The translations under genes and the position numbers were made by a program. 64,000 nt of DNA from Calditrichia bacterium. Lineage in GTDB: Bacteria; Calditrichota; Calditrichia; RBG-13-44-9; J075. The stretch is from contig JACKAP010000006.1 of assembly GCA_020635015.1 (NCBI GenBank), forward strand, positions 76,998 through 140,997. Direction: 5' to 3'. The notes under the pieces were generated by a model. That model searched no databases. It saw only the letters and a list, made by a program, of their open reading frames with translations, and had not been told where the DNA came from. Shown piece by piece: positions 15,235 to 61,855 of this stretch (the first letter of the stretch is position 1; each line of letters begins with the position of its first letter).

Positions 15235-15300
15235 GTTGACTCTCCTTATGCTTGTAAAAATAAAGACTCTAAATATATGATATGGAATATCTGAAAACAA

Positions 15301-36214: not shown

Positions 36215-36235
36215 CCCAAACTCCTGCTTTTTTTG

Positions 36236-42765: not shown

Positions 42766-42964
42766 CTCCGGCTCTCAGCTTGTGCGATCGAATAGTGAAT
42801 TGCAAACTGGCATTAATCCAACTTTATTATGATGCTGGATACTGGATGCTGGATACAAGATTGGGTCGAGCATCCAGCGTCTTCGGATGTATAGATCGTT
42901 ACCATTCGCATTGTAATATACCGGATTTAATCGCGGTACTCCATCATTGATACATTTTGTTCGC

Positions 42965-43369
42965 GGTTGATGGGTTAATGGGGAAAAGGATAAAGGATAA
43001 AGGATAAAGGATAAAGGATAAAGGTTGAAGATACTGGATACTGGATACTGGATAAAATAAAAATGCTTGTTCAGGTGTGAAAATCGGGTTCATTTAAGCA
43101 TCCAGCATCCAGCATCCAGCATCCAGCATCCAGCATCCAGCATCCAGCATCCAGCATCCAGCATCCAGCATCCAACATCCAACATCCAGCATCCAACATA
43201 TACTCATCAGACAAAGCCATCCGCAAAAACTTGCAAATTTCCTATTGACCTGACCCGATCCCTTCAACATATTTCCGCCGCAATGAAAAATCAACCCATC
43301 AACCCATCAACCCATCAACCCATCAACCCATCAACCGATCAACCCATTAACCCATCAACCCATCAACCC
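42965..43369. repeat. IR-L: composite heptamer block (GGATAAA)5-(ATACTGG)3-unique core-(GCATCCA)12-(ACATCCA)-(CCATCAA)9 running up to the S9 peptidase start codon
   Basis: Seen directly. Its first 200 bp or so are the reverse complement of 45296-45545. Confidence 0.9.
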
Positions 43370-45295: not shown

Positions 45296-45545
45296 GTGGA
45301 TGGGTGGATGGGTTGATGAGTGGATGGGTGGATGGGTTAATGGGTTGAGATGCTGGATGCTGGATGCTGGATGCTGGATGCTGGATGCTGAAATGAACCC
45401 GATTTTCGCACCCGAACAAGCATTTTTATTTTACCCAGTATCCAGCACCTTCAACCTTTATCCTTTATCCTTTATCCTTTACCCTTTATCCTTTATCCTT
45501 TATCCTTTTCCCCATTCACCCATCAACAAGCAATCGCAAAACCAC
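45296..45545. repeat. IR-R: inverted copy of the IR-L composite heptamer block
   Basis: Its reverse complement reads ttgatgggtgaatggggaaaaggataaagg...ggttgaaggtgctggatactgggtaaaataaaaatgcttgttcgggtgcgaaaatcgggttcatttcagcatccagcatccagc..., over 90% identical to 42969-43160. Confidence 0.9.
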
Positions 45546-46798: not shown

Positions 46799-46826
46799 TG
46801 CATAAGTCATCATCCTGTAAATACCG

Positions 46827-46924
46827 TTGCATGGGGCATGGGGCATGGTGTATTACAGTGCGAGTGTCGACGTATACGCTAGCACATGACGGCGCCATGC
46901 GCTTTGCCCTTTGCCCCATGCAAA
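46827..46924. repeat. MITE-like palindromic element copy 1 (TTGCATGGGGCATGGGG ... CCCCATGCAA)
   Basis: Terminal inverted repeats GCATGGGGCATGGGG / CCCCATGC with an internal TATTACAGTGCG core. Copies are at 52773-52856 and 58702-58798. Confidence 0.85.
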
Positions 46925-47074
46925 AGCCGTCCCCAATATCCAGTCCCCGGCACGAACGAAAATAAGTATGCTAGATATACACATTTTTTTTGTATGTTGC
47001 TGATGAGACGGGGCGATCTGCGGGTCGCCTTTGTTTTTTGGCAGCATGATGTTGATTGATGAAGAGGAGTCAGG

Positions 47075-48190
47075 ATGATATTTGGCGTTCCGCTCGAAAT
47101 TCGCACCCATGAGCACCGGGTGGGCGCGGTGCCGTCGGTGGTGCATGAATTGGTCGGTCTGGGCCATCAGGTGCTGGTGGAGGCCAAAGCCGGAGAAAGA
47201 AGCGGGCACAGTGATGCCGATTACGCTGCGGCCGGTGCCACCATCGTGCCCTCGCCGGAGAAACTCTACTCTCAGGCGGAAGCGATCCTGAAGGTGCGTG
47301 GCCCGATTCCGGTTGAGTACGACTTGATCCGCCCCGACCACATCCTCTTCGGCTTCTTCCGGTTTTTTAACCGCCCGGAGAAAACCCTGGCCCTGCTGGG
47401 GCGGGGATGCACCTGTTACGCCTACGAAATGTTCAAAACCCGAGACAATCGCCGCCCGCTGCTGGATATCGACTGCCGGATTTCCGGACAGGTGGCGGTG
47501 CAGCAGGGAAGCACCTATCTGATGACCCCGCACGGGGGCCGGGGCGTGCTGCTGGGACGAATTCCGTTTGGCGACCCGCTGAATGTGACCATCCTTGGCC
47601 TGAGTGTCGCCGGGATCAGCGCAGCGGAGTTCGCCGCCCAAAACGGCGCCCGCATCAACATCATCGATCATGATGAAACCCGCTTTGAAGAAGCGGCTTC
47701 CCACCTTCCGGAGGATGTGCGTTTGCTGAAATTCTCACCGGAAACCCTGCAGGAGATGCTGCCGCGCACCGATCTGCTGATCAGCACCCTGCAGGAGGTG
47801 GAGGATCTCTCGCCGGTCGTGCTGAGCAAGGCGGAGGTTGGGCTGATGCCTCCCGGATCGGTGTTGGTGGATCTGGCGGCGGACTTTGGCGGCAGTGTCG
47901 AAACCAGCAATCCCACCTCCCCGGATAATCCCACCTTTGTGGTTGAGAATGTGATCCATTACTGCGTGCGCAGCCTGCCCAGCATGGTAGCGGCGACCGC
48001 TTCGGAAGCGCTCAGCAATGCGCTGTTGCCCTACCTGATTCGTTTCTGTGAAGCGGGATTTGTGGAAACCCTCAGAGCTAACGAGGAACTGGCCACCGGG
48101 CTGGTCTTTTTTGAAGGCTGGGTCACCCACGAAAAGCTGGCGGAGACCCTGGGTGTCAAGTATGTCGATTTCCGGGAGAGCGGTGAGTAA
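47075..48190 (+). CDS. Alanine dehydrogenase/PNT family protein (Ald-like) with divergent dinucleotide-binding loop
   Basis: N-terminus 'MIFGVPLEIRTHEHRVGAVP...HQVLVEAKAG' is collinear with AlaDH. The glycine loop reads 'ILGLSVAGISAA' (GxSxxG) instead of GxGxxG. Confidence 0.7.
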   Translation: MIFGVPLEIRTHEHRVGAVPSVVHELVGLGHQVLVEAKAGERSGHSDADYAAAGATIVPSPEKLYSQAEAILKVRGPIPVEYDLIRPDHILFGFFRFFNRPEKTLALLGRGCTCYAYEMFKTRDNRRPLLDIDCRISGQVAVQQGSTYLMTPHGGRGVLLGRIPFGDPLNVTILGLSVAGISAAEFAAQNGARINIIDHDETRFEEAASHLPEDVRLLKFSPETLQEMLPRTDLLISTLQEVEDLSPVVLSKAEVGLMPPGSVLVDLAADFGGSVETSNPTSPDNPTFVVENVIHYCVRSLPSMVAATASEALSNALLPYLIRFCEAGFVETLRANEELATGLVFFEGWVTHEKLAETLGVKYVDFRESGE

Positions 48191-49049
48191 GCGGCGCCAC
48201 CGGGATTCCATCCGTGCCCTGCTGGCAAAGATCCCCATCCTGACCTATCACAAGATCGAAAACCGCCGGGAAGTGGGCATTAACGCCCTCCCCCCGGAAC
48301 ATTTCCAGGCGCAGCTGGCCTGCCTGCAGGAACTGGGATATACCACCATCACGTTTCACGACCTCCTCGATTCCCCGGAACTGCCAGAGAAGGCGGTCAT
48401 CCTTACCTTTGATGATGGGTATGCGTCGGTCTACGAGCATGCCCTGCCGCTGATGCAGCCCTACGGATTCCGCGGAGTGGTTTATGCGGTTGGCCGCTTT
48501 ATCGGCCGCTGGAATGATTGGGATGCCAATCTGGGCGGCATCCGCTTCCGCCACATGGACCGGCGGCAGCTGCGTGAGCTGGCGGATGCCGGCTGGGAGG
48601 TCGGCGCTCATTCCCTGACCCACCGGGCGCTCTCCTGGCTTGATGAAACAAGCCTTCACCGGGAAATTTTCGGATCACGTGATCTACTGGCTGATGTCGC
48701 CGGTCGCATGCCAGCGAGCTTTGCCTATCCGTTCGGCATGCATCATCTCCGGGTGCGGGAGATGGCCAAAGCTGCCGGATTTGCTTTCGCCTGCGGCGGG
48801 ATTAACAGCGCTGCAGAAGCCGTCGATCCCCTGCAGTTGCGCCGTGTCCCGGTCTACCAGTTCGAAGGGCTCAGCGCTTACCGGAAAAAGCTGCGGATCG
48901 CGGGTTTGCCCCGATTGGAATATCTAAAACTCCGTATCCTGAGCTGGCCGGCGGTACTCACGCCGCTCTATCAAAAGCGCTTCCGTCGGGAATTATTCCT
49001 TGAAATGGAGGGCATGCCGGGGGTATATTCTAATAATTCAAACGATTGA
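48183..49049 (+). CDS. Polysaccharide deacetylase (NodB-homology) family protein
   Basis: 'VILTFDDGYASV' NodB motif 1 and 'HSLTH'. A GTG start at 48183 overlaps the upstream stop by 8 nt; the ORF-track N-terminal extension is antisense to the Ald-like 3' end. Confidence 0.75.
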   Translation: MSKRRHRDSIRALLAKIPILTYHKIENRREVGINALPPEHFQAQLACLQELGYTTITFHDLLDSPELPEKAVILTFDDGYASVYEHALPLMQPYGFRGVVYAVGRFIGRWNDWDANLGGIRFRHMDRRQLRELADAGWEVGAHSLTHRALSWLDETSLHREIFGSRDLLADVAGRMPASFAYPFGMHHLRVREMAKAAGFAFACGGINSAAEAVDPLQLRRVPVYQFEGLSAYRKKLRIAGLPRLEYLKLRILSWPAVLTPLYQKRFRRELFLEMEGMPGVYSNNSND

Positions 49050-49127
49050 GCCGATTATTACCAGCACCTGAGATTGGATTGACGATGCTCAGGTTGCATT
49101 CGCGGCAATCAAAGACGGTCTGTTGAG

Positions 49128-49478
49128 ATGAGCATTCAGAAACCGCCGAAAAAACTCTATTATTCGCTGCGTCAAACCGCCTCCATGACCGGTTTGAGTG
49201 TCGCCGTGCTTAAAAATTGGGAGAAAGAATTTCCCGAAGTTCAGCCCGCCCGCAATCGCGCCGGCAACCGCCATTATACCGATAGCGACTTGACCCTCCT
49301 CTTCCGCATCAAGGAATTACTTTTGGAAAAAAAGTTGTCTCCGGAGGAAATTCACACCCGCCTGCGCAGCCATCCGGCCCAGCCCGCTCCGGAAGTGGCC
49401 GACGTGGTGCGCCTGAAAAAAGTGCTGGCGGAGATCAAGCTGGAGATCGAGGAAATATTGCTGCTGTTGCGGGAGTAG
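49128..49478 (+). CDS. MerR-family transcriptional regulator
   Basis: HTH 'YYSLRQTASMTGLSVAVLKNWEKEF' and a C-terminal coiled-coil. Confidence 0.75.
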   Translation: MSIQKPPKKLYYSLRQTASMTGLSVAVLKNWEKEFPEVQPARNRAGNRHYTDSDLTLLFRIKELLLEKKLSPEEIHTRLRSHPAQPAPEVADVVRLKKVLAEIKLEIEEILLLLRE

Positions 49479-49604
49479 GGGGGACGAAGGGTGAAGGATG
49501 AAGGATGAAGGATGAAGGATGAAGGATGAAGGATGAAGGATGAAGGATGAAGGATAAAGGATAAAGGATGAAGGATAAAGGATGAAGGATGAAGGATGAA
49601 GGAT
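49479..49604. repeat. (GGATGAA/GGATAAA)n heptamer tract, about 17 units
   Basis: gggggacgaagggtgaaggatgaaggatgaagg...ggataaaggatgaaggataaaggatgaagg. Confidence 0.9.
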
Positions 49605-49970
49605 ATGTCGGAACGTAAATCGCCACGACTCAGTGGAGGCATCCAAAAATTTTGGGAAGAGCGGGAGCAGTTGAATGAAACCGTGCTGAAAAATGCCGGC
49701 CTCACCACCCGGCGTTTTTTCAGTCTGGATCATCAGGCCTACCAGGAAGGCGCTCTGCCGGTCAAGACCAAGGAACTGCTGGGCCTGGTCGCCTCGCTGG
49801 TGCTGCGCTGCGACGATTGCATCTCCTATCATCTGGTGCGCTGCCGGGAAGAAGGGGTGAGCGCGGCAGAATTGGAAGAGGCGCTGTCGATCGGGCTGGT
49901 CGTGGGAGGCTCTATCACCATTCCCCATCTCCGCCGGGCCTTCCGCGCCTGGGAGGAGATGGAAGGCTAG
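49605..49970 (+). CDS. Carboxymuconolactone decarboxylase/AhpD-like family protein
   Basis: 'LVLRCDDCISYH' AhpD-core CxxC..H motif. Confidence 0.7.
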   Translation: MSERKSPRLSGGIQKFWEEREQLNETVLKNAGLTTRRFFSLDHQAYQEGALPVKTKELLGLVASLVLRCDDCISYHLVRCREEGVSAAELEEALSIGLVVGGSITIPHLRRAFRAWEEMEG

Positions 49971-49991
49971 CGCCGCACGCACCCTAGGGCT

Positions 49992-51149
49992 TTATCCGAA
50001 CAAGCGGGAGTCTGACACCTCCGGCTCCTGGCTGGAGACGGTTTCCATGTAGGTCTTAATGAATGAAGGGCGGAAGATCTTGCGGTCGAAACCGATATTG
50101 CCCTCATCAGCCAGATTGCGGATCAATTGTTTATAGGATTTGAAGGCCCGGACTTTCACATAAAACGGAATCCAGCGCAGGGGAAACTTCAGCGGTCCCA
50201 GCACCAGCCGCTGCCGCCCGAGATGCTTTTCCAGGTTACCGGGGTTGAGGTAGTTCAGCAGATGGGCCGCCCCCTGATCGACCAGCGCCCGGTATCCTTT
50301 CAGCATCGCCCGTTCGTGAAGGAGATGCTCTTCGATTTGCTGGTGAATATAGTTCAAGCGCCGGTCGGCTTCTTCCGGGGTGATGTCGGCATCATACAGA
50401 TAAGCCTGAAGCTCTTCCGGGGTGGATAAATGCAGGGGCTGGTCGCTGATGACCGTGGCGATTTCCATAAATTGCCGGCGGAATTTGGCCGCTTCTTTAG
50501 CCAGTTCGATCAGGGCGTTAAATAAAATCTCTTCGGTCTTGCGGGGGTTGTAGGGGGGACCCGCTCTTTCCGCAGGTGGTGCCGGCTGCGCCGGGGCCGG
50601 GGGAGCTTCCGGGAAAATGGCCGCGAGCATGGCGCGGATCTCCTCTCGGCTGACCGCGCGGCGGGTGAGGGCGTCATCCAGCGCACCGCGCATCTCGCTT
50701 TCCCGAAGTTCACGCTTTTCGCTGTGGAATTTTTCAGCCAGCTGCTGCAGCAGATGCACCAATTGGCGAATATCTTCCTGGAAGGGATTGAGGTAAGGAG
50801 CCGTTTCATCCGCCCTTCCATTGCGGTGAGGCGCTTCCGGGCGAAATTGATATTCCAGCAAAAATTCCCCGATTTGAATCTTGTCTCCGTTCTGCAATTG
50901 ATAGGGCTGCTCGGCAGCCAGCTTGATCTGGTTGAGATATGTCGCATTGGCGCTTTTGCAATCCACCAGATAATATACCGCGCCCTTCTGCCGAATCATG
51001 GCGTGGCGCCGGGAAACCACTTTCTCCCGGTCTTGCAGTTGCAGGGTGTTGGATGAATGGCGGCCGATCGAGATCAATGCCTGTTCGAACTCCGCCTCCT
51101 GCTGCCAATTTATATCGGATGCCTTCCGGATGTTAAATCTCGCGGGCAT
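49992..51149 (-). CDS. FHA-domain protein with large C-terminal domain of unknown function
   Basis: N-terminal FHA 'ISIGRHSSNTLQL...VSRRHAMIRQKGAVYYLVDCKSANATYLNQ'. Confidence 0.75.
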   Translation of the reverse strand: MPARFNIRKASDINWQQEAEFEQALISIGRHSSNTLQLQDREKVVSRRHAMIRQKGAVYYLVDCKSANATYLNQIKLAAEQPYQLQNGDKIQIGEFLLEYQFRPEAPHRNGRADETAPYLNPFQEDIRQLVHLLQQLAEKFHSEKRELRESEMRGALDDALTRRAVSREEIRAMLAAIFPEAPPAPAQPAPPAERAGPPYNPRKTEEILFNALIELAKEAAKFRRQFMEIATVISDQPLHLSTPEELQAYLYDADITPEEADRRLNYIHQQIEEHLLHERAMLKGYRALVDQGAAHLLNYLNPGNLEKHLGRQRLVLGPLKFPLRWIPFYVKVRAFKSYKQLIRNLADEGNIGFDRKIFRPSFIKTYMETVSSQEPEVSDSRLFG

Positions 51150-51201
51150 GCTTACGCTCCTTTCCCAAAAGTGTGCAAACTATGAACATTCCCCGCCGGT
51201 T

Positions 51202-52692
51202 TTACCGATCGCTTTTTTTAGCATAATCGGGATACCAGGCCTTCATACAGTCGTCGCAGATGCCATGACTGAACTCTGCTTCTGAATGTTCTTGCAAATA
51301 CAGTTCCAATTGATTCCAATATCCCTTATCATCACGTATTTTTTTACATGAGGAGCAGATTGGAATCAATCCCCGGAGCGTTTTGATTTTGGTCAGGGCG
51401 TCACGCAGTTCGCGGATCAACTGTTCTTTGGCAGCTTCCGCCTCTACTCGGTCAGTGACGTCTCGGATGATCGACAGCACCGCTTCTGACCCGCAGGCCA
51501 TGATGCGGTTTTCATAGAATCGTTTTTTGCCATGCACCTGCAGGTCGAATTCGAACACCTGCACCGTGCCGGAATACAGCGCTTTGGAAATATAGCCGAG
51601 GGTTCGCTGGTTGATTTCGCCGGGCAGCAGGTCGTGCAGTCTTTTCCCCGGCAGGTCATCGCCGAACAACGGAATGGTGTTCTTGGGCATCTTGCAGGCC
51701 AGCACTGTGCCGTCCTGGTTTAGCTGCATCATCAGATCCGGTATGGCGTTGAGCAGGGCGCGGTTGGTGACTTCGCTTTGCTGGAGGGATTTCAGGAAGT
51801 TCTCCAGGTTTTCCCGGGAGTTTTTTTCTTTGTGCACGCGCTCGTTCAATATCAGGCGTTCCAGCCCTCCGGCGGTTTGCCGGGCGATGTCGGTCAGCAG
51901 GCGCAGATCGCTGTTGCCGAACTTCTTGGCGGATTTATCCTCGATATACAATACCCCCATCAGGGAATCCTTGCTGCGCAGGGGAACGCAGATGGCGGAG
52001 TGCATTTCCTCCGCCAGGAGCGTATCGGCCGGGTCGGTGCCCGGGTTATATATTGCCGCCTCCCCGTTGCCTAGCACTTGCGCCACCAGCGGCCGGCGGT
52101 AGGAGTCGGAGGCCCCATAGTAAATCTGGCAGTAGGGCATCGGGTCCTGGTCGAACAGCAGGATGGCGCCTCCATCGGCGCCGGTCGATTGACAGGACAG
52201 CTTAATCACCCACTCACAAATGGTATCGATATCATTGGTCTGGTTGAATTTCTGGCTGATCTTGTTGATGATCAGATAGTGCAGATCTACCGTGTTGCTG
52301 GGATCCACGCTGTCGGCCTTCGCTGCGGTTTCGCCGGTGGGCTGATCCTGCGGGATGTCGGCAGCAAAGGTCAGGATGGTAAACCCGACCCGGATCTGGT
52401 CCTGATCGGCCAGGCGGATGCGTTTGATCCGCTCGTCGTTGACATAGGTGTGATTCCGGCTTCCGAGATCTTCAATGTAGTAATGGCCTTTCTCGCGGAA
52501 GATCCGGGCATGACGGCGGGAAACCGTCTCGTCATCGATCGCCAGATCATTTTCGATCTGCTGGGAAAGATCATCTTTCCCGATATATATCTCCTCCTCG
52601 GAGAAGGTGTACGCTTCTTCGCTACCGTTTGGCAGGCGTACCTTTAACTTGGCCATGGGCATCCCTTTGCTGATTCGATCATAATATATCAA
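51202..52692 (-). CDS. FHA-GAF-PAS multidomain signalling protein with C-terminal Cys4 zinc-ribbon-like motif
   Basis: FHA 'IYIGKDD...VSRRHARIFREKGHYYIEDLGSRNHTYVND', a central GAF-like region, a PAS-like region and a C-terminal 'PICSSCKKIRDDKGYW...HGICDDCMKAWYP'. Confidence 0.7.
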   Translation of the reverse strand: MIYYDRISKGMPMAKLKVRLPNGSEEAYTFSEEEIYIGKDDLSQQIENDLAIDDETVSRRHARIFREKGHYYIEDLGSRNHTYVNDERIKRIRLADQDQIRVGFTILTFAADIPQDQPTGETAAKADSVDPSNTVDLHYLIINKISQKFNQTNDIDTICEWVIKLSCQSTGADGGAILLFDQDPMPYCQIYYGASDSYRRPLVAQVLGNGEAAIYNPGTDPADTLLAEEMHSAICVPLRSKDSLMGVLYIEDKSAKKFGNSDLRLLTDIARQTAGGLERLILNERVHKEKNSRENLENFLKSLQQSEVTNRALLNAIPDLMMQLNQDGTVLACKMPKNTIPLFGDDLPGKRLHDLLPGEINQRTLGYISKALYSGTVQVFEFDLQVHGKKRFYENRIMACGSEAVLSIIRDVTDRVEAEAAKEQLIRELRDALTKIKTLRGLIPICSSCKKIRDDKGYWNQLELYLQEHSEAEFSHGICDDCMKAWYPDYAKKSDR

Positions 52693-52772
52693 AATTTACC
52701 ACACCGCCAAAGAGAATGCAAAAAGGCTTGATTTTTCTTGAATGATCAATCTGAGAGCAGTGTAGGTCTTTT

Positions 52773-52856
52773 TTGCATGGGGCATGGGGTATTACAGTGC
52801 GGGTCTCGGAATATGCGCTTGCGCATTACGGCGCCATGCCCTATGCCCCATGCAAA
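52773..52856. repeat. MITE-like palindromic element copy 2
   Basis: ttgcatggggcatggggtattacagtgcgggtctcggaatatgcgcttgcgcattacggcgccatgccctatgccccatgcaa. Confidence 0.85.
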
Positions 52857-52972
52857 AGTTTTCCACATTTTACAGTTCTCAAAATGCTTGTTTGCAAAAA
52901 AAAATAAAAAATGTGTTGCAACATTAAATGTCTATACATATATTTTTGGCGAATAAAATAACCGAGTATTAT

Positions 52973-53422
52973 ATGGAACTGGAAAAAGAGATTAATCAAA
53001 GCAAGTTTCGCAACGAATATCAGAAGATGATCATCAACATCCTCTTCACCGCCGGGTGGTTGAATCATCACAATTCGCTGAAGTTAAAGCCCCATGGCAT
53101 ATCGCCTCAGCAGTTTAACGTACTGCGGATTCTGCGCGGCCAGCATCCCAATCCGGTCACGATCAACCTGCTGCAGGAGCGGATGCTTGACCGCATGTCG
53201 AATGCCTCCCGGTTGGTGGAGAAGCTGCGCCAGAAAAACCTGGTGGAACGGCGTGTCTGCGAACGCGATCGCCGGGCGGTTGACGTCATCATCACTGATC
53301 AAGGGTTGGCAATATTGGCAGAACTGGATAAAGTGATGATCGAATGGGAAAACGAATGCAAAGTGTTGAGTGAAAGCGAAGCAGATACCCTGAACCGGCT
53401 CCTAAATAAACTGCGCGGCTAG
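52973..53422 (+). CDS. MarR-family transcriptional regulator
   Basis: 'ISPQQFNVLRILRGQHPNPVTINLLQERMLDRMSNASRLVEKLRQKNLVER' winged HTH. Confidence 0.8.
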   Translation: MELEKEINQSKFRNEYQKMIINILFTAGWLNHHNSLKLKPHGISPQQFNVLRILRGQHPNPVTINLLQERMLDRMSNASRLVEKLRQKNLVERRVCERDRRAVDVIITDQGLAILAELDKVMIEWENECKVLSESEADTLNRLLNKLRG

Positions 53423-53425
53423 GGG

Positions 53426-53478
53426 GGTTATAGATTGCGGTTATTGGCAACAACACCCAATAACCGCAATCTATAACC
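53426..53478. terminator. Perfect palindrome with 22-bp arms (GGTTATAGATTGCGGTTATTGG / CCAATAACCGCAATCTATAACC) immediately after marR
   Basis: Seen directly; no clear U-tract, so this may be a bidirectional terminator or a protein-binding dyad. Confidence 0.45.
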
Positions 53479-53576
53479 AAATGCCAAAGACTAAAGACCA
53501 AGAGCTAAATGTTTGAAAGACATATTTTATAGTAACCAAACAAATATCACCATAAATCAATCTAAGGAGTTGTATC

Positions 53577-54185
53577 ATGAAAAAGTATTTTGCAGTGTTG
53601 TTGGTTTTCGCCTTGACCGGGTTGGGAGGCAGCTTGTTGGCCCAGACTTACACCGTTGATGTAGAGAATAGCAAACTGGCCTGGGAAGGTGAAAAAGTGA
53701 CCGGTAAGCATCATGGAATTATCAATATTCAATCCGGGCAACTTTCCCGTGACGGTGAAAGCCTGAGCGGCGAATTCACGATTGACATGAATTCGATCGT
53801 TGACTTCGACCTGGAAGACCCGCAGTGGAACCAGAAACTGGTCGGTCATCTGAAGTCGGATGATTTCTTCTCGGTGGACAAGCATCCGGTCTCCACTTTC
53901 AAGATTACCAATGTCGCCGAATATGAAGCCAAAGAAGGGGAGAAGGCAACCCACACCATTACTGGCGATCTGACCATCAAAGGGATCACCCATCAGATTT
54001 CCTTCCCGGCCTATGTCAATTTCAACGGGGAAACCGTGGTGGCCGAAGCGAACTTCGCGATCGATCGCACCAAGTGGGATATCCGCTTCCGTTCCGGCAG
54101 CTTCTTCGAGAACCTGGGCGACAAGCTGATCTACGACGACATCAAATTCGAACTGAATCTGACCGGTGCTAAGGCCGAAAGCTAA
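53577..54185 (+). CDS. YceI-family periplasmic protein
   Basis: Signal peptide; 'KVTGKHHGI' and 'ITGDLTIKGITHQISFPAYVNF' match YceI-like. Confidence 0.8.
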   Translation: MKKYFAVLLVFALTGLGGSLLAQTYTVDVENSKLAWEGEKVTGKHHGIINIQSGQLSRDGESLSGEFTIDMNSIVDFDLEDPQWNQKLVGHLKSDDFFSVDKHPVSTFKITNVAEYEAKEGEKATHTITGDLTIKGITHQISFPAYVNFNGETVVAEANFAIDRTKWDIRFRSGSFFENLGDKLIYDDIKFELNLTGAKAES

Positions 54186-54202
54186 GGATCACCGGTTCAA
54201 GT

Positions 54203-54241
54203 AAGGCGGCCAGTATTTTGTTTTATAAGTCTGGCCGCCTT
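54203..54241 (+). terminator. Stem-loop AAGGCGGCCAG(n17)CTGGCCGCCTT downstream of the yceI-like gene
   Basis: 11-bp perfect stem with a U-rich loop. Confidence 0.4.
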
Positions 54242-54315
54242 ATGAATTATGACGGCTATAAGCTAATAAATCAGTTTTTCTTTACAATTATATTTAGCAT
54301 TTTTTTGGCAATATT

Positions 54316-55023
54316 ATGAAAATACTATACATATATCCCCATCCCGATGATGAATCCTTTGGCCCCGGCCATGTGATGGCGAAACAGGTGCGCGATGGCC
54401 ACGAGGTATACTTGCTGACCCTCACCAAAGGAGGCGCCACCCGGCAGCGGTTTAAATACAATCATACGATCGCTGAGATGGGGGAGGTGCGTTACCGGGA
54501 AATGCTGAATGTCGCCAGGACGTTAAATCTCACCGGCATGACCGTGCTGGACCTGCCCGACAGCGGATTGAAGGAGATGGATCCCCGGGAGATCGAAAAA
54601 GTGGTTGCTGCCGAGATCGAGCGGCTGCAGCCGGCAGTGGTGGTGACCTATGCGGTTCACGGTATCAGCGGCTTTCACGATCATCTGGTGACCCATGCAG
54701 TAGTAAAAAGAGTTTTTGTGGATTTAAAGGAAAGAACAAATTATCTTAGACGGTTGGCAATGGTAACACTCACCGAAGCTGATGCGAGTATGGGAACGAT
54801 GTTTAAGCTGAATCATTCCAAGCCTGAGGAAATCGACTGCATCGTGACGGTGGAAGATGCCGACATCAAAAGCTGCCATGCAGCCCTGGATTGCTATACG
54901 ACATTTCAGGAAACGATCGAGAAATCCGGCATCAAATCATTCATTAAGCACCAGGCGGTGTTTGAAATTTTTCAGGAAGATCACAAGCCGCCGCTGACCG
55001 ATCTCTTTGATCATTTGTCCTGA
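54316..55023 (+). CDS. PIG-L/LmbE family N-acetylglucosaminyl deacetylase
   Basis: 'ILYIYPHPDDESFG' and 'HGISGFHDHLVTH' motifs. Confidence 0.8.
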   Translation: MKILYIYPHPDDESFGPGHVMAKQVRDGHEVYLLTLTKGGATRQRFKYNHTIAEMGEVRYREMLNVARTLNLTGMTVLDLPDSGLKEMDPREIEKVVAAEIERLQPAVVVTYAVHGISGFHDHLVTHAVVKRVFVDLKERTNYLRRLAMVTLTEADASMGTMFKLNHSKPEEIDCIVTVEDADIKSCHAALDCYTTFQETIEKSGIKSFIKHQAVFEIFQEDHKPPLTDLFDHLS

Positions 55024-55140
55024 GCATGATCACGCTGCTGCGGTTCGCTAAATCATTGAACCGGGCTGCTGGTAGGCGTGATGTCTTTACATGCATCCGG
55101 GGGAAGTGGCATTTTCTTTAAATCCAGGAGGGTTGCAGCA

Positions 55141-55707
55141 ATGAAATCGTGCACAAGCGTCCGGGCGATGATGAGTGGGGTATTCATTTCGTTGGTGACC
55201 ATGTGCGCCTGCGCGCCATTAAACTCGGAACGGGAGGACGGTCGAAGTTATACCCCGCCTCCGAAGCCGAAGCAAACGACGACGGTTAAAGCTGATACTT
55301 CCGGTCAGAACGGGCCGGTAATCGGGCCGCCGCTGCCGCCGTCTTATAAAAAACCGGAAAACCCCAAGCCCAAAGCCGTAACACCCGCGCCGAAAGCGGA
55401 GAAGGTCTATTATGGGAAGGCGGTTTATATCGACAATCAGCTGCACGGCCGGCCGACGGCCAGTGGCGAGCGTTACGACCGCACCAAATTTACTGCCGCC
55501 CATATTTTTTTGCCGTTTGGCACCATCTGCCGGGTAACCAACCTGGCCAACGGAAGGACCGTCAATGTGCGGATCAATGACCGCTGCAAGAATGTCGACA
55601 ATCGGGTGATCGACCTCTCTTACGCCGCAGCGGAGGAATTGGACGCGATTCTGGCGGGGGTCATCAATGTAAAAATTGAAGTGGTTAAAGAAGTGGAGTA
55701 TCCGTGA
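55141..55707 (+). CDS. RlpA-like (DPBB) lipoprotein
   Basis: Lipobox 'LVTMCAC', a Pro-rich linker and DPBB 'GKAVYID...TASGERYD...FGTICRVTNLANGRTVNVRINDR'. Confidence 0.7.
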   Translation: MKSCTSVRAMMSGVFISLVTMCACAPLNSEREDGRSYTPPPKPKQTTTVKADTSGQNGPVIGPPLPPSYKKPENPKPKAVTPAPKAEKVYYGKAVYIDNQLHGRPTASGERYDRTKFTAAHIFLPFGTICRVTNLANGRTVNVRINDRCKNVDNRVIDLSYAAAEELDAILAGVINVKIEVVKEVEYP

Positions 55708-55708
55708 G

Positions 55709-57028
55709 GTGAAAACCGCCTGTATCATCGGCGCCGGCGCCTCCGGTATTACCGCCGCGAAAACCTTCCGGGAGCAGGGAATTGATTTTGACTGCTTTGA
55801 GAAAGGTTCCGGTATCGGCGGCAACTGGCGCTACGGAAACGACAACGGGATGTCTTCCGCCTACCGCTCCCTGCATATCATCTCCAGCAAGTGGAACATG
55901 CAGTATTCCGATTATCCCATGCCGGAAGATTTTCCCGACTACGGCCATCACAGCGATGTACTGCGTTATTTCGAGAATTATGTCGATCACTTTGGCATTC
56001 GCGAGACCATCCGCTTTCATTGCGAAGTGAAAGAGGTGACGCCGCACTCCCGGGATGGCTGGGAGGTGACCCTCGCAGGGGGCGAGCGCCGGAACTATCG
56101 TGCGGTGGTGGTGGCCAACGGCCATCACTGGAATCCCCGCTGGCCGGAATTTCCCGGAAGCTTTCACGGAGAAGCAATCCATTCTCATCATTATAAAACG
56201 CCCGAGGCCTTTGAAGACAAAAATGTGCTGATCGTCGGGATCGGAAATTCCGCCTGCGATATTGCGGTCGACCTCTCCCGCCTGGCCCGCACGGTGCATC
56301 TTTCTACCCGGCGCAGCGCCTATGTGCTTCCGAAATATGTGCTGGGAATTCCCAATGATCAATGGCTTCATCCGCTGTTCGATTATTTCCCGCTGGCCCT
56401 GCGTCGCACCGCCTTCCGGATATTGGCCTACATGACCGTTGGTAACCAGGAGCGCTACGGCCTGCCCCGGCCCCGCCACAAATTGTTGCAGGAGCATCCC
56501 ACTCTGAATCAGGAATTTTTGTCCTACGTGGGACACGGGCGGATCAAGATCAAACCGGATATCCGCGAACTGCAGGGGGAACGGGTGGGGTTCGTCGACG
56601 GCAGCAGTGAACCGTTCGATACGATCATTTATGCCACCGGCTATAACATCACCTTTCCGTTTCTGAAGCCGGAAGTGTTTACGGTGCAGGACAACCGGGT
56701 ACACCTTTACCGGCGGGTGATCGATCCGGAATTGCCCAACTTGTTCTTCCTGGGGCTGATCCAGCCCCTCGGGGCGATCATGCCCCTGGCGGAGTTGCAG
56801 GCCCGCTGGATCGCCGGGCTGCTGAACGGCGAGATGGCCCTGCCGGACGAAGGGCGGATGCGCCGCGATATCGAGGCCGATCGTTCCCTCCTGCGCCGCC
56901 GCTACACCGACTCCGCCCGCCATACCATCCAGGTGGATTTTTGGGATTATGTGCACCAACTGAAGCGGGAAATGCGGAAAGGGAAGAAGCTTGCTGATAG
57001 GAAAAGGAGGATGAAGGGTGAAGGATAA
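55709..57028 (+). CDS. Flavin-containing monooxygenase (FMO family)
   Basis: 'KTACIIGAGASGITAAK' FAD site and 'VLIVGIGNSACDIAVDL' NADPH site. GTG 55709 is preferred, after GGAG and 2 nt past the upstream stop. Confidence 0.8.
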   Translation: MKTACIIGAGASGITAAKTFREQGIDFDCFEKGSGIGGNWRYGNDNGMSSAYRSLHIISSKWNMQYSDYPMPEDFPDYGHHSDVLRYFENYVDHFGIRETIRFHCEVKEVTPHSRDGWEVTLAGGERRNYRAVVVANGHHWNPRWPEFPGSFHGEAIHSHHYKTPEAFEDKNVLIVGIGNSACDIAVDLSRLARTVHLSTRRSAYVLPKYVLGIPNDQWLHPLFDYFPLALRRTAFRILAYMTVGNQERYGLPRPRHKLLQEHPTLNQEFLSYVGHGRIKIKPDIRELQGERVGFVDGSSEPFDTIIYATGYNITFPFLKPEVFTVQDNRVHLYRRVIDPELPNLFFLGLIQPLGAIMPLAELQARWIAGLLNGEMALPDEGRMRRDIEADRSLLRRRYTDSARHTIQVDFWDYVHQLKREMRKGKKLADRKRRMKGEG

Positions 57029-57175
57029 AGGGCAAAGGATAAAGGGCAAAGGATAAAGGAATAACCTTGATTGACATTGGGACTGGATTTTGTTCTGTTT
57101 CAGCATCCAGCATCCAGCATCCAGTACAACCCATCAACCCATTTACAAAAGAAAAACATCCACCATATCATACAC
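57008..57175. repeat. Composite heptamer block (GGATAAA/GGGCAAA)n-spacer with TTGACA-(GCATCCA)3-(CCATCAA)2 upstream of the SDR gene
   Basis: Same modular order as the IR-L block upstream of the S9 peptidase. Confidence 0.85.
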
Positions 57176-57946
57176 ATGCAACCAAAAACCATCTTCATCA
57201 CCGGCGCCGCTTCCGGGATCGGAGCGGCTACTGCCCGCAAGTTTCACGCGCAGGGCTGGTTTGTAGGTTTATATGATCTGAATCCCGCTCCGCTGGCTGA
57301 GTTGCAGCGCTCCCTGGGCACGGAAAACAGCTGCTTCATGGCCTTGGATGTACGCGACCGGGAGGCGGTGGCAGCGGCGATGGACCACTTCGGGGCGCAC
57401 AGCGGGGGGAGGATGAACCTGCTGTTCAACTGTGCCGGGATCATCGGCATCGGCCCCTTCGAGGACCTCCGGCTGGAAGATCACCTGCGTACGGCGGAGG
57501 TGAATTTTCAGGGGGTGCTCAACTGCACGTTTCTGGCTTTTCCGTTGCTGAAAGCAACTCCCGGCGCGCGGGTGGTCAGCATGTCCTCCGCCTCGGCCCG
57601 CTACGGCACGCCGGACTTTGCCAGCTACTCGGCCAGCAAATTCGCGGTGCGCGGCCTAACCGAAGCGCTGAATATCGAATGGCGCCGGCATGGCATCGTG
57701 GTCAGCGACATCATGCCTCCATTCGTTAATACCCCGATGATCCAGAGCGGGCCGGCCAGCAAGAGTTTCGAGCGGATGGGCATCCGTCTCAGGCCGGAGC
57801 AGGTGGCTGAGGTGGTCTGGAAAGCCGCCCGGGGAAACAAGGTGCACTATCCGGTCGGTTTGCAGTTCAAACTGCTCAACGCCCTCTCGGCCGTTTCGCC
57901 TGACTGGCTGACCCGCCGGGTGATGCGCTGGATTGGGGGATATTAG
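57176..57946 (+). CDS. Short-chain dehydrogenase/reductase (SDR)
   Basis: 'IFITGAASGIGAATA' and 'YSASKFAVRGL' (YxxxK). ATG 57176; upstream codons of the listed ORF translate repeats. Confidence 0.85.
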   Translation: MQPKTIFITGAASGIGAATARKFHAQGWFVGLYDLNPAPLAELQRSLGTENSCFMALDVRDREAVAAAMDHFGAHSGGRMNLLFNCAGIIGIGPFEDLRLEDHLRTAEVNFQGVLNCTFLAFPLLKATPGARVVSMSSASARYGTPDFASYSASKFAVRGLTEALNIEWRRHGIVVSDIMPPFVNTPMIQSGPASKSFERMGIRLRPEQVAEVVWKAARGNKVHYPVGLQFKLLNALSAVSPDWLTRRVMRWIGGY

Positions 57947-57976
57947 TGTGCGCTACCCGGGCTTTCGCAAGAACAG

Positions 57977-58045
57977 ATTCCTCACTTCGTTCGGAATGAC
58001 AGCACAAATGTCATTCCGAAGGCGCCAGCCGAGGAATCTGTAATT
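57977..58045. repeat. About 55-bp hairpin element copy 2, with outer arms CAGATTCCTC / GAGGAATCTG and inner arms GGAATGACA / TGTCATTCC
   Basis: aacagattcctcacttcgttcggaatgacagcacaaatgtcattccgaaggcgccagccgaggaatctgtaatt, 37 bp upstream of the kefG start. Confidence 0.85.
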
Positions 58046-58081
58046 CTACAAGATGTGACCATCTATGCCAAAAGGAGCGAC

Positions 58082-58678
58082 GTGAAAAAAATTCTGATTA
58101 TCTTCGCCCACCCCGCGTTTCAGAAATCGCGGGTGAATGCCCGGCTGATCGAAGGGCTGGCTCAGATGGAAGGGATTACCTTCCACGATCTTTATCAGGC
58201 CTACCCGGAGTTCGACATCGATATCGCCGCCGAGCAGCAGCTGCTGACCGGGCATGACGTGATCGTGTTTCACCATCCCTTCTTCTGGTACAGCACCCCG
58301 GCGCTGCTCAAGGAGTGGCAGGATCTGGTGCTGGAGCATGGCTGGGCCTATGGCAGCCAGGGGAATCAGCTTAATGACAAGTGGTTTTTTAACATCATCA
58401 CCACCGGTGGCGGTGCGGCTGCCTACAGCCAGCAGGGCTATAATTTTTACACCATCCGCCAGTTGCTGGCGCCGATCGAACAGACTGCCAGGCTATGCAA
58501 GATGGTGTTTCTGCCGCCCTATGTGGTGCACGGCACCCACGCCATCACCCCAGAGGAAATCGAAGCATACCGGGAGAAAGGCCAACGGCTGCTGACGATG
58601 ATCCGCGATGGGGATTTTGACCTGGCGGCTGCCATGCAACTGCAATATTTAAATGATTATATGAAACGCTCAGACTGA
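58082..58678 (+). CDS. kefG: Glutathione-regulated K+-efflux system ancillary oxidoreductase KefG/KefF (flavodoxin-like NAD(P)H:quinone oxidoreductase)
   Basis: 'ILIIFAHPAFQKSRVNARL...DVIVFHHPFFWYSTPALLKEWQD' is collinear with E. coli KefG. GTG start after AAGGAG. Confidence 0.85.
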   Translation: MKKILIIFAHPAFQKSRVNARLIEGLAQMEGITFHDLYQAYPEFDIDIAAEQQLLTGHDVIVFHHPFFWYSTPALLKEWQDLVLEHGWAYGSQGNQLNDKWFFNIITTGGGAAAYSQQGYNFYTIRQLLAPIEQTARLCKMVFLPPYVVHGTHAITPEEIEAYREKGQRLLTMIRDGDFDLAAAMQLQYLNDYMKRSD

Positions 58679-58701
58679 TGACGATGTAATGCGGCGCACT
58701 T

Positions 58702-58798
58702 TTGCATGGGGCATGGGGCATGGCGCCGTAATATGCAAGCGCATGGTCCGACACCCGCACTGTAATACACCATGCCCCATGCTCCTGGCCCCATGCAA
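58702..58798. repeat. MITE-like palindromic element copy 3 (central core inverted relative to copies 1 and 2)
   Basis: ttgcatggggcatggggcatggcgccgtaatatgcaagcgcatggtccgacacccgcactgtaatacaccatgccccatgctcctggccccatgcaa. Confidence 0.85.
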
Positions 58799-58875
58799 TA
58801 TAACTTGACACTATACTCAGTCTGAGCAGACTCATTCTGAGCGATCCGAAAAACTCAAAAACAGGAAATAGATCC

Positions 58876-60771: not shown

Positions 60772-60823
60772 GGTAGGGTCGCGACCCTACCCACACCCCT
60801 CAACCCCTCAACCCATCAACCAT
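60768..60823. repeat. REP-like palindrome GTAGGGTAGGGTCGCGACCCTACCC (copy 2) followed by a (CCCTCAA/CCATCAA)n tract
   Basis: It overlaps the kefB stop codon (TAG), the same arrangement as 4100-4180. Confidence 0.85.
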
Positions 60824-60842: not shown

Positions 60843-61790
60843 ATGTCCCCCAAAGTCCACGGCATCCATCACGTTACTGCCATGGCCGGCGATCCCCAGC
60901 AGAATGTCGATTTTTATGCCGGCATTCTCGGGCTGCGCATGGTCAAAAAGACCGTCAATTTTGACGATCCGTTCACCTATCATTTTTACTATGGCGATGA
61001 TGCCGGCAATCCCGGCACGATCATGACCTTTTTCCCCTGGAGCTCTGCCGGGATGCGCGGCCGGATCGGCAATGGTCAGTTGAGCGTCACCTCCTTTGCC
61101 GTACCCGAAGGTTCACTGACCTTCTGGGAGGCGCGCCTGAAAGCGCATCGGGTAAAGATCCGGGGTATTTCCGAACGGTTTTCGGAAACGGTGCTCTCGT
61201 TTGACGATCCGGACGGGCTGTTGCTGGAACTGGTGAGTTCGCCGGCCGAGCGCCGTCCGGGATGGGAGAACGGCAGCATTCCTGCCGATCATGCCATCCG
61301 TGGGTTTTACAGCGTCACCCTTTCCCTGGCGGCCTACGAGCGAACCGCCGGTCTGATGACCTCCACCCTGGGTTACCAGGCGGTGGAGGACGCAGACAGC
61401 CGCTTTCGCTATGAATCCGGGACCGGGGGCCCTGGTACCTATGTCGACCTGTTTTGCCAGCCTTCCGCGCCCCGCGGCACGATGGGCGTGGGCGCGGTGC
61501 ACCACGTGGCCTGGCGGATCAACGACGACGAGTCCCAGCTGCAGCTTCGCCGGGAATTGCTCGCCTCCGGATACCAGGTCTCGCCGGTGATGGACCGGAA
61601 CTATTTCCATTCGATCTACTTTCGGGAGCCCGGCGGGGTGCTGTTCGAGGTGGCGACCGATCCCCCGGGTTTTGCAGTTGATGAACCGGCCGAGAGCCTG
61701 GGCCAGTCGCTGAAGCTGCCCCCCTGGCTGGAGAAGGAGCGGGCGTTGATCGAACAGAACCTGACGCCGGTAACGGTGCGGAAACCCTGA
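60843..61790 (+). CDS. VOC-family two-domain ring-cleaving dioxygenase/glyoxalase-like protein (MhqO-like)
   Basis: 'IHHVTAMAGDPQQNVDFYAGILGLRMV' and the second VOC module 'VHHVAWRINDD'. Confidence 0.8.
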   Translation: MSPKVHGIHHVTAMAGDPQQNVDFYAGILGLRMVKKTVNFDDPFTYHFYYGDDAGNPGTIMTFFPWSSAGMRGRIGNGQLSVTSFAVPEGSLTFWEARLKAHRVKIRGISERFSETVLSFDDPDGLLLELVSSPAERRPGWENGSIPADHAIRGFYSVTLSLAAYERTAGLMTSTLGYQAVEDADSRFRYESGTGGPGTYVDLFCQPSAPRGTMGVGAVHHVAWRINDDESQLQLRRELLASGYQVSPVMDRNYFHSIYFREPGGVLFEVATDPPGFAVDEPAESLGQSLKLPPWLEKERALIEQNLTPVTVRKP

Positions 61791-61794
61791 TGAA

Positions 61795-61855
61795 GGGAAA
61801 AGGATGAAGGATAAAGGATGAAGGATAAAGGGAAGAAGAATAGCCCCATTGTTCA
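61795..61855. repeat. (GGATGAA/GGATAAA)n tract
   Basis: gaagggaaaaggatgaaggataaaggatgaaggataaagggaagaag. Confidence 0.85.

Follow-up and report, generated by a model that had tools for sequence, protein, structure and literature searches.

The 64,000-nt stretch of DNA analysed here (hereafter the window) contains three copies of a short palindromic repeat. The first inner unit (46827-46924, + strand) follows an M16 peptidase gene, the second (52773-52856, + strand) lies between divergent genes for an FHA-domain and a MarR-family protein, and the third (58702-58798, - strand) separates a kefG/kefF-like gene from a kefB/kefC-like gene. A first-pass annotation had placed the copies at these positions, all in intergenic DNA, and both points are borne out. 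Gene calls at each site confirm the intergenic setting. An nhmmer profile built from the copies scored 93-100 bits per site, with E-values between 1e-27 and 1e-29 (about 1e-27 each), far above chance. There are exactly three occurrences of TATTACAGTGCG in the window, all of them inside the three units. The motif GCATGGGGCATGG gave 13 matches with up to two mismatches against 4.9 expected, a number reached in none of 100 shuffles, and its exact matches are restricted to the same units. The open reading frames crossing the element are short and lack Pfam domains, and genuine genes overlap them. All three repeats are genuine copies of one small, non-coding mobile element, whose host is an uncultured bacterium probably related to Calditrichia.

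The unit of about 95 bp is merely the inner part of a nested palindrome, which measures 120-177 bp in the window copies and about 150-180 bp when complete. The heptamers GCATGGG and CCCATGC had been taken for terminal inverted repeats (TIRs) at the ends of the element. Instead, they form tandem arrays within a longer palindrome, and homology runs some 30-45 nt beyond them on both sides. The true ends, seen with the help of additional family members, consist of outer TIRs of 24-33 nt (CGCTCATACTGAGGACNGTGTAATGCGGAGAAC ... TTTACACGGTGCTCAGTATGAGCG) that are asymmetric because a linker of about 10 nt (ATGCGGAGAA) is present on one side only. Inside the arm, the order is TTTT, then (GCATGGG)2-5, then a conserved 46-nt core possessing its own 10-bp G.U-rich stem-loop; after the core come (CCCATGC)2-6 and a short linker rich in A (consensus AATAAAAC), and an 8-bp target duplication flanks the whole element. 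The arms CGCTCATACTGAGGAC.GTGTAATGCGGAGAAC and TTTACACGGTGCTCAGTATGAGCG adjoin every reasonably intact copy and are found nowhere else in the approximately 130 kb searched. At eight loci they carry no more than seven mismatches, and at one of these loci, L083, they are perfectly complementary across 23 nt.

In the window, the arms are complete in the third copy, weaker in the second and degenerate in the first. The third and most complete window copy spans 58667-58843 on the - strand and is covered completely by the full-length profile (positions 2-155, matched at 58667-58827). Its linker-bearing arm (58667-58699) shows five mismatches to the consensus, and its right terminus, CTCATTCTGAGCG, where two tandem termini are present, ends at 58843; a variant of this site (L101) has a single terminus followed by ATCCGAAA. 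The second copy (52743-52890, + strand) is covered nearly completely (positions 4-150 at 52746-52885), and its arms could be read. The first is detectable from 46821 to 46940 on the + strand, where positions 30-144 of the 155 in the profile are matched. The conserved cores lie at 46849-46894 (+ strand, TGTATTACAGTGCG...ACGGCG), 52788-52833 (+ strand) and 58724-58769 (- strand). The core of the third copy had been described as inverted relative to the others. However, the - strand of this copy aligns end to end with the first two, including the asymmetric right end CCCCATGCAAAAG and a conserved extension, and scores 100 bits as opposed to 24 bits for the + strand. The whole element is reversed.

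Searching protein databases with the translated element and then fetching contigs from public metagenomes yielded a family of about 23 members, comprising the three in the window, nine more independent sequenced loci and about 11 members known solely as ORF translations. Twenty members lie beyond the window. The core is carried by 21 spurious ORFs (ITVRVSE[HP]ALAHYGAMPHAPC). Together, the fetched contigs and the window provide 13 sequenced copies at 12 independent loci, dispersed over non-homologous sites; as the copies come from metagenome assemblies, their assignment to the same genome rests on binning and shared samples.

Close strains offered no empty site, the element being present in all ten contigs covering the third window site and in both contigs covering each of the other two. 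In distant relatives with 70-80% KefB identity, kefG and kefB are adjacent with no element between them, and none of 80 kefB loci from other taxa contains it. The two genes abut or overlap in seven of the eight related genomes for which upstream sequence was available, and in the eighth they are about 100 nt apart; the corresponding gap in the window is 197 nt. According to the gene calls, the last codons of kefG and its stop (CGC TCA GAC TGA, 58667-58678) are supplied by the left arm of the third copy. No autonomous element with matching TIRs (CGCTCATACTGAG...) was found in the sequence searched, and the scanned genes of the 64-kb window encode no transposase, RAYT or invertase domain.

We placed the element boundaries by aligning the copies to a consensus. 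At the true outer ends placed in this way, L083 is bordered on both sides by a perfect 8-bp duplication, AAGTCGCA. Among the eight copies with both ends, the 8-bp flanks match at 8, 6, 6, 6, 4, 3, 2 and 0 of 8 positions, relative to a null mean of 2.1 (permutation p ~0.0009), a statistic that is somewhat optimistic because the outer of the two tandem termini of the third window copy was picked with hindsight. In this copy, a candidate left duplication, ATATGAAA (58659-58666), matches the candidate right duplication ATCCGAAA (58844-58851) at six of eight positions directly outside the termini. The flanks of the second copy match at two of eight positions, and for the first copy the duplication is undefined.

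Tandem Repeats Finder detected arrays of period 7 with 2.1-3.9 copies. GCATGGG arrays occupy 46829-46848 (2.9 units), 52775-52789 (2.1 units) and 58704-58723 (2.9 units), all on the + strand, and their inverted partners lie at 46895-46921 (CCATGCG/CTTTGCC/CCATGC), 52834-52853 (2.9 units) and 58770-58796 (3.9 units), respectively. Between strains, the arrays differ by gains and losses of complete 7-nt units. In the ortholog of the first copy (L085), the two arrays are shorter by 14 and 7 nt, and the ortholog of the second (L097) is identical save for one additional unit (7 nt) in one array and two substitutions. L100 and L103, two among the seven assemblies whose sequence is unbroken at the third site, have two units (14 nt) fewer in the partner array. 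The flanks of all these variants are identical or nearly so. Orthologous loci differ by 7 or 14 nt, a tandem heptamer variation resembling that of STRR sequences but confined to the arrays, and slipped-strand mispairing would be its probable cause. The window as a whole holds 26 tandem arrays of the intergenic type with 7- or 8-nt units.

Core orientation was scored against the asymmetric outer arms (the O+ frame), a reverse core being called configuration A and a forward core configuration B. Across the family the core occurs in either orientation: five loci display configuration A (the three window copies, L084 and L096) and seven display configuration B (L083, L086, L088, L089, L090, L093a and L093b). 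The first two window copies have their core forward on the + strand with O+ on the - strand, and the third has its core forward on the - strand with O+ on the + strand. Orientation is not tied to similarity of the core sequence. Cores of configuration A share a mean identity of 0.82 and those of B one of 0.87, compared with 0.85 across the two groups, with no clustering by orientation, and the cores of the third window copy (A) and L083 (B) are 94% identical. Both configurations are present in a single MAG, GCA_020434165.1. Judged from consensus sequences rather than reads, no locus showed an inversion, since orientation was constant across the assemblies of each of six loci: seven unbroken assemblies for the third window site, three each for L093b and L090, and two each for L086 and the second and first window sites. 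Three further assemblies of the third site contain N runs and stand outside this count.

When folded as RNA, each of the three window copies forms a long hairpin with a minimum free energy of -49 to -60 kcal/mol (z -5.0 to -6.4), as the first-pass annotation had expected. Its suggestion that a hairpin of about 40 bp might serve as a terminator fared less well. A U-tract is absent at all three copies, where the hairpin is followed by AAAAG or mixed sequence and no T-tract terminator pattern lies within or abutting the element; the sole terminator-like site near the first copy is situated downstream, at 47010-47031. The element thus differs from an intrinsic (Rho-independent) terminator. We found no promoter consensus inside it and no orientation bias. 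Mean pairwise identity is 88% in the core as compared with 78% in the arms, and the stem pairs of the core include 71 G.T versus 3 A.C. The greater conservation of the core and the excess of G.T hint at a constraint beyond a purely selfish-DNA model.

The element, then, is multi-copy and intergenic, ends in TIRs, is bounded by a target-site duplication of fixed length and is small and devoid of coding capacity. We think it likely that it defines a new family of MITEs, unusual in its architecture of nested hairpins. Of the original proposal of a small non-autonomous mobile or REP/BIME-like family, the mobile part holds, given some 23 members, the TIRs and the 8-bp duplication, and the REP/BIME-like part looks unlikely.

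Alternatively, the core stem-loop could be the active part of a functional RNA structure or of a hairpin regulating in cis, for instance one that stabilises mRNA, serves as an RNase III site or yields a small RNA, and selection would maintain it locus by locus. In each of the 13 copies the core folds better on its forward strand, by 4-13 kcal/mol over the reverse; pairing is seen in 94% of stem cells and is kept through one-sided changes, with G-C becoming G-U 10 times and A.C 3 times. The superior conservation of the core and the low z-scores of the hairpins agree with such a function. On the other hand, the forward strand is sense to the neighbouring genes in five loci and antisense in four, and the strand asymmetry merely travels with the core on flipping. 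Nor does the window match any Rfam 15 family at the gathering score; for L083 only chance matches resembling miRNA precursors appeared (E 0.18-0.36), far below gathering. As the element also contains neither promoter nor terminator consensus, and the covariation shuffle control was not significant (127-259 of 500), we regard this explanation as unlikely. Similarly tentative is the idea of a flip-flop hairpin element, in which the recurrent core inversion and the one-strand G.U stem, rather than being products of chance decay, reflect a single-stranded or cruciform intermediate, or else a selected strand-specific RNA or ssDNA function, during movement. Such an intermediate might undergo hairpin-primed copying or be resolved in the manner of rolling-hairpin replicons; if true, the family would propagate or function in a way so far undescribed for bacterial MITEs.

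We further doubt that the family consists of REP/BIME or REPIN elements, that is, single-stranded hairpins spread by a domesticated Y1 transposase (RAYT, IS200/IS605-like) in the absence of target-site duplication. The long imperfect palindrome in intergenic DNA, the occurrence of copies in both orientations, the strand asymmetry of the core, with better folding of one strand in every one of the 13 copies, and the ratio of G.T to A.C, as expected with one DNA strand as the substrate, would all suit such elements. Yet the present copies are flanked by an 8-bp direct repeat, and at 150-180 nt with distinct outer TIRs they contrast with REP units of 20-40 nt. Moreover, the first two window copies are oriented opposite to the third within 12 kb of one replichore, which means that there is no strand bias, and the 64-kb window contains neither a Y1_Tnp domain among its scanned genes nor a RAYT gene flanked by the repeats.

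Quite improbable, in our view, is an origin from two nested elements, in which an inner GCATGGG-ended MITE would have landed, either way round, in the loop of an older outer palindrome before the composite spread. The inner unit does have its own inverted ends (TTTTGCATGGGG / CCCCATGCAA(A)) and, in the consensus, a possible 3-bp AAC repeat beside it, and the two core orientations relative to the arms would fit. However, in about 130 kb the outer arms never occurred without an inner unit, and every inner unit had at least remnants of the arms. The junctions of the arrays with TTTT and with the A-rich linker are the same in both configurations, only the 46-nt core being different, so that insertion of the whole inner unit in two orientations does not predict the pattern unless the arrays were perfectly symmetric. 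Least credible is an inverton, with the core as a phase-variable segment that a site-specific recombinase would invert at the flanking arrays, thereby switching a neighbouring gene: both core states do occur between inverted repeats, independently of core phylogeny and within one MAG, but orientation is fixed in the assembled consensus sequences of every locus sampled more than once, 46 bp leaves very little length for recombinase synapsis, the core lacks a promoter consensus and no recombinase gene lies nearby.

Under the favoured MITE interpretation, the element would be moved in trans by a transposase making 8-bp staggered cuts. The core may have flipped repeatedly through intramolecular recombination or template switching between the inverted heptamer arrays (hairpin-loop inversion). 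When co-transcribed, for example inside the kefG-kefB operon, the element would place a very stable hairpin in the mRNA, and its insertion in that operon may also have rewritten the last codons of kefG. Any effect on expression would be a by-product rather than an established function, the element having neither a canonical terminator tail nor a promoter.

In Neisseria, Correia elements (CREE, also NEMIS) generate TA dinucleotide duplications and contain promoter as well as IHF elements. The present family, in contrast, shows an 8-bp duplication, no promoter consensus, internal tandem heptamer arrays, a second nested level of palindrome and inversion of the core. It resembles CREE in being small and non-coding, in combining inverted repeats with a core, in its potential to form a long hairpin and in that insertion can remodel gene ends. 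CREE are non-coding elements of 69-151 bp with inverted repeats of about 26 bp and a characteristic core; they are mostly intergenic, often co-transcribed and present in hundreds of copies (PMC5039591). REPINs, which are imperfect palindromic doublets in intergenic DNA that spread within genomes and form hairpins (PMC3116915), share these properties, as do REP-BIME sequences, with our family. Unlike it, REPINs have no target-site duplication or distinct outer TIRs and need a REP-flanked RAYT gene, of which the window has none. Heptamer arrays are known across Cyanobacteria and Bacteroidetes (PMC4679880), and the GGGAATC arrays of Xanthomonas include 70-75 cases in which convergent inverted pairs could fold into stem-loops (PMC4692102). 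Our arrays are like these, like the STRR of heterocystous cyanobacteria and like the TAACTGA arrays of Beggiatoaceae in having intergenic 7-nt units that vary in number between close relatives, but none of those arrays has been reported inside a transposable unit that combines a conserved core with outer TIRs and a flanking target-site duplication. Parvovirus terminal hairpins exist as flip and flop isomers. Here too, a short segment bounded by inverted repeats occurs either way round, as it does in the small hairpin-associated inversions of plastid trnH-psbA and similar cases, where a short loop inverts recurrently and independently of phylogeny (PMC2903610). Those plastid and parvovirus cases concern single loci or replicon termini, whereas here the segment resides inside a dispersed bacterial element, the putative MITE.

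The three repeat units that the first-pass annotation had placed at 46827-46924, 52773-52856 and 58702-58798 of the window (w1, w2 and w3) are present there. Each unit has one occurrence of the 12-mer TATTACAGTGCG, which is found nowhere else in the 64 kb, and exact matches to GCATGGGGCATGG lie inside the three units only. A profile built from the three copies gave each of them 93-100 bits, with E-values of 1e-27 to 1e-29, and had no further match in the window. Their gene neighborhoods are likewise as described: w1 follows an M16-family peptidase gene, w2 has a divergent FHA-domain gene on one side and a MarR-family gene on the other, and w3 is flanked by kefG/F-like and kefB/C-like genes. 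Each unit also forms the stable hairpin attributed to it (-49 to -60 kcal/mol, z -5.0 to -6.4). The suggestion that this hairpin serves as an intrinsic terminator was rejected, the terminator consensus being absent.

Two structural claims were overturned. Copy 3 had been said to carry its core inverted relative to copies 1 and 2. In fact, its minus strand aligns with them end to end, an alignment that takes in both the asymmetric end, CCCCATGCAAAAG, and conserved sequence extending past it, and the three-copy profile scored 100 bits on that strand versus 24 bits on the plus strand. A wholly reversed copy resembles one with a reversed core because the ends are near-palindromic. The inverted repeats that had been quoted as termini are tandem heptamers, GCATGGG repeated two to three times and inverted CCCATGC three to four times. 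Since the window holds 26 arrays of period 7 or 8 (at least 2.8 units), many of them in inverted pairs, such arrays are doubtful as transposon ends.

Direct searches yielded few leads. The core pattern TATTACAGTGCG-N20-32-ACGGCGCCATG had no match in viral contigs, nor in genome contigs or JGI metagenome contigs, both of which lack the window's genome. When the full element was compared by blastn with plasmids and phages, the one match was to a Providencia plasmid and spanned 34 nt of heptamer array. Rfam gave no meaningful match for the window at the gathering score or for the database contig L083 at an E-value threshold, and no literature mention of the MAG and sample accessions was found. 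The nearest KefB relatives belong to Calditrichia/Calditrichales MAGs (73-78% identity) and an unclassified MAG (80%); the same kefB sequence is also present in an ENA assembly. As the element is open in three forward frames, we searched its translations against protein databases and fetched the contigs of the matches. Twenty-one spurious database "proteins" carrying ITVRVSE[HP]ALAHYGAMPHAPC proved to be translations of the element. The fetched contigs brought the sequenced copies to 13 at 12 independent loci: w1 (with its ortholog on L085), w2, w3, L083, L084, L086, L088, L089, L090, L093a, L093b and L096. L089 comes from NCBI MAG GCA_020434165.1, in which the kefG-kefB locus of the window is present too, encoding an identical KefG.

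When the copies were anchored on the core, the 46-nt conserved segment between the inverted arrays, nearly all of them extended outward into a second, outer palindrome. The consensus reads CGCTCATACTGAGGACNGTGTA-ATGCGGAGAAC-TTTT-(GCATGGG)n-[46-nt core]-(CCCATGC)n-AATAAAAC-TTTACACGGTGCTCAGTATGAGCG. The outer arms were found exclusively beside the element in the ~130 kb of sequence searched. On a full-length profile of 155 positions, w1 (46821-46940) covers positions 30-144, w2 (52746-52885) positions 4-150 and w3 (58667-58827) positions 2-155, and the extended hairpins reach down to -62 to -117 kcal/mol. On one side only, about 10 nt (ATGCGGAGAA) separate the arm from TTTT, and this one-sided linker defines an outer-arm frame. 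The element is thus larger than had been seen at first, and the heptamer "TIRs" are internal to it.

Immediately outside the arms, L083 displays a perfect 8-bp direct repeat, AAGTCGCA. The flanking 8-mers agree at six of eight positions in L088 and L093a, and also in w3 (ATATGAAA at 58659-58666 versus ATCCGAAA at 58844-58851), whose end we took to be the outer of two tandem termini, a choice backed by strain L101 with its single terminus. Matches per eight in eight copies were 8, 6, 6, 6, 4, 3, 2 and 0, compared with a mean of 2.1 for mismatched flank pairs (permutation p ~0.0009). Because the boundaries were set by alignment, this flanking-sequence evidence that the 8-bp target-site duplication is real is good but not airtight. 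Duplications of 8 bp are a trait of IS families such as ISL3, IS256, IS6, IS66 and IS1595. No transposase, Y1 enzyme or invertase was detected among the window genes scanned, a few of which were covered solely via Pfam tables of orthologous contigs. With its duplication, terminal inverted repeats, dispersed multiple copies and absence of coding capacity, the element falls within the working definition of a MITE, and the earlier view of a small mobile element family is upheld.

The kefG-kefB locus illustrates an insertion inside an operon. In seven of the eight related genomes with upstream sequence the two genes abut or overlap, and in the eighth (L002) they lie ~100 nt apart; the spacing in the window is 197 nt, 177 of them element. 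The 3' end of kefG (last codons and stop, CGC TCA GAC TGA) sits within the w3 arm and would thus have been rewritten by the insertion. None of 80 kefB loci from other taxa contained the element. The check for empty sites in close strains found none: all ten contigs that encode an identical KefG were filled, as were both contigs with the same MarR and the ortholog of w1. Several assemblies have contig breaks or runs of N exactly at the element, as expected of a repeated palindrome.

Orthologous copies differ in length by whole heptamers. With flanks identical or nearly so, the arrays of w3 orthologs are 14 nt shorter in L100 and L103, that of the w2 ortholog is 7 nt longer in L097, and those of the w1 ortholog are 14 and 7 nt shorter in L085; other window arrays vary likewise (two +7-nt changes in L085). 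One arm carries 3 to 5 units and the other ~1.5 to 6, and the two counts do not always agree. Slipped-strand mispairing would be the obvious cause of these changes. Formation of G-quadruplexes by the GGGG-CAT arrays was rejected, since most of them fall short of four intact G-tracts. In two copies known from ORF translations, back-translated by eye, new arrays arise elsewhere in the element: P0010 has its arm-adjacent linker expanded into (CCGCATT)n, and in P0020 one core flank has GATGCTG-type units, not GCATGGG.

The core, TGTATTACAGTGCGGGTGTCGGAACATGCGCTTGCACATTACGGCG, occurs in both orientations relative to the outer-arm frame. It is forward (configuration B) in L083, L086, L088, L089, L090, L093a and L093b, and reverse (configuration A) in w1/L085, w2, w3, L084 and L096. 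The arm/TTTT/array and array/A-rich linker/arm junctions are alike in A and B; the inter-array segment alone is turned. Among ORF matches known by translation, about 16 are B and 6 are A, judged from flank translations, a ratio biased because an ATG in the linker favors ORF calling in B. Cores share a mean identity of 0.82 in A and 0.87 in B, against 0.85 for A-B pairs, with no clustering by configuration; the core of w3 (A) is 94% identical to those of L083 and L090 (B). As one MAG, moreover, holds both configurations, the core must have flipped more than once.

An alternative is that an older outer element received insertions of an inner one in either orientation, but no solo inner or outer parts were seen in the ~130 kb. 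We argue against an inverton, in which the core would be a phase-variable invertible segment, since at any given locus its orientation is the same in every assembly; flipping is therefore rare on population time scales. The recurrent flip probably arises from recombination, or else template switching, between the inverted arrays, as in the hairpin-associated small inversions of plastid DNA (PMC2903610).

Strand-specific constraint on the core, as RNA or single-stranded DNA, is a minority possibility. The core folds into a 10-bp stem, four of whose pairs are G.U, and a further outer stem. In 13/13 copies the fold of its forward strand is more stable than that of the reverse by 4-13 kcal/mol, and the core is more conserved than the arms (88% vs 78%). 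Paired cells across copies comprise 186 Watson-Crick, 71 G.T, 3 A.C and 13 other, and departures from Watson-Crick pairs lead ten times to G.T and three times to A.C. However, the copies compared are non-independent and a covariation shuffle control was non-significant. Rfam held no match to the core (window, L083), and no promoter or terminator consensus was found in the element. Relative to neighboring genes, the forward core strand is sense at five loci and antisense at four, so that an orientation bias was rejected, as was one for the outer-arm frame (7 sense, 2 antisense, not significant). Most likely, the element is selfish DNA.

The window is rich in other repeats. The 64 kb hold 26 tandem arrays with units of 7 or 8 nt, a density among the highest of 82 loci compared, and nearly all of them are intergenic (examples at 3207-3326, 9564-9587, 49482-49604, 57008-57142, 60795-60821 and 61789-61831). 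They frequently begin at a stop codon or finish at a start codon, draw on a few recurring unit families (AAGGATG/A, CAGCATC, ATCAACCC/CACCCATT and TTGGTTG), and have identical units on both strands. An S9-peptidase/esterase gene (43370-45295) has nested inverted arrays on both sides (42957-45540). Upstream lie (AAAGGAT)10, (GATACTG)3, a unique 40-nt stretch, (AGCATCC)15 and (ATCAACCC)10, the last ending at the ATG. Directly after the stop codon the series is mirrored by its reverse complements, (GTGGATGG)6, (GATGCTG)6, the unique stretch again and (CCTTTAT)8. The arms (42957-43137 and 45349-45529, 181 nt) are 86% complementary; the 5' and 3' ends of a transcript would pair across hundreds of bases. 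In ortholog L085 the arrays differ in length by 7 nt.

A second small hairpin family, built like the GCATGGG element, has inverted TTGGTTG/CAACCAA heptamer arrays around a short conserved core, GTTAAGACAGGTCTTTGCC. Its two window copies (1877-1933 and 20795-20851) are 84% identical, and a third (L088, ~2250-2310) directly adjoins a GCATGGG element. Between two convergent genes, a large palindrome (12297-12567) consists of ~20-22-nt tandem units (TGTTTGCTCGCTTCGCTCGCGA six times) and, after ~43-77 nt, their reverse complements; arms 12359-12405 and 12483-12529 are 94% complementary. Hairpins made of inverted units at 36300-36420 (GCTGTCATTGCGAGGCG...CGAAGCAATCTC) and 57970-58050 (GTCATTCCGAAGG...GAGGAATC) resemble a widespread type of intergenic repeat that often yields spurious ORFs. 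The gene at 35000-36271 contains a 276-nt tandem duplication (35268-35819, 74% identity) of bacterial Ig (Big_7) domains. A mostly non-coding region of 935 nt precedes dnaA (15568-17037; both within 14633-17037), with a small minus-strand ORF that by eye is rpmB-like (L28), and cumulative GC skew climbs across the entire window; the chromosomal origin is probably close by, with + as the probable leading strand.

Outside this lineage, the sole TIR-style match in metagenome contigs, L082 (JGI contig Ga0172371_10317994, region 140-720), was rejected as an unrelated heptamer palindrome (GCATGGG/GCAGGGA) from an unrelated low-GC organism. The palindrome adjoins a short minus-strand gene (262-621) with GCATGGG-type arrays, apparently inverted, on both sides, whose product by eye looks like a four-helix bundle (23S rRNA IVS/Avd-like). 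Array-bracketed genes may thus extend beyond the window's lineage.

In conclusion, the repeat is a real, multi-copy, lineage-restricted MITE family of unusual architecture, with a nested palindrome, slippage-prone arrays and a recurrently flipped core. If our reading holds, this is an undescribed family from an uncultured, probably Calditrichia-related lineage, and it combines three usually separate phenomena: transposon-type ends with a duplication, hypervariable arrays in a hairpin stem, and recurrent inversion of the loop. The stakes are moderate. The element offers a test case for how inverted heptamer arrays, which are frequent in Xanthomonas, cyanobacteria and this genome but have no explanation, originate and stay paired, and for whether they cause small inversions in bacterial DNA in the way that palindromes do in plastids. 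In practice, its copies break short-read assemblies (N runs, contig ends) and give rise to spurious ORF calls.

Correia/CREE elements duplicate TA; with its 8-bp duplication and its own sequence and architecture, the element described here is not a member of that family. It nevertheless behaves as Correia/CREE-type bacterial MITEs do (PMC5039591). It differs from REP/REPIN sequences in having a duplication and in the lack of a RAYT domain in the window (PMC3116915). Its arrays are similar to inverted pairs of GGGAATC heptamers in Xanthomonas and to the heptamer arrays of cyanobacteria and Beggiatoaceae, which are not described as belonging to transposable units (PMC4692102, PMC4679880).
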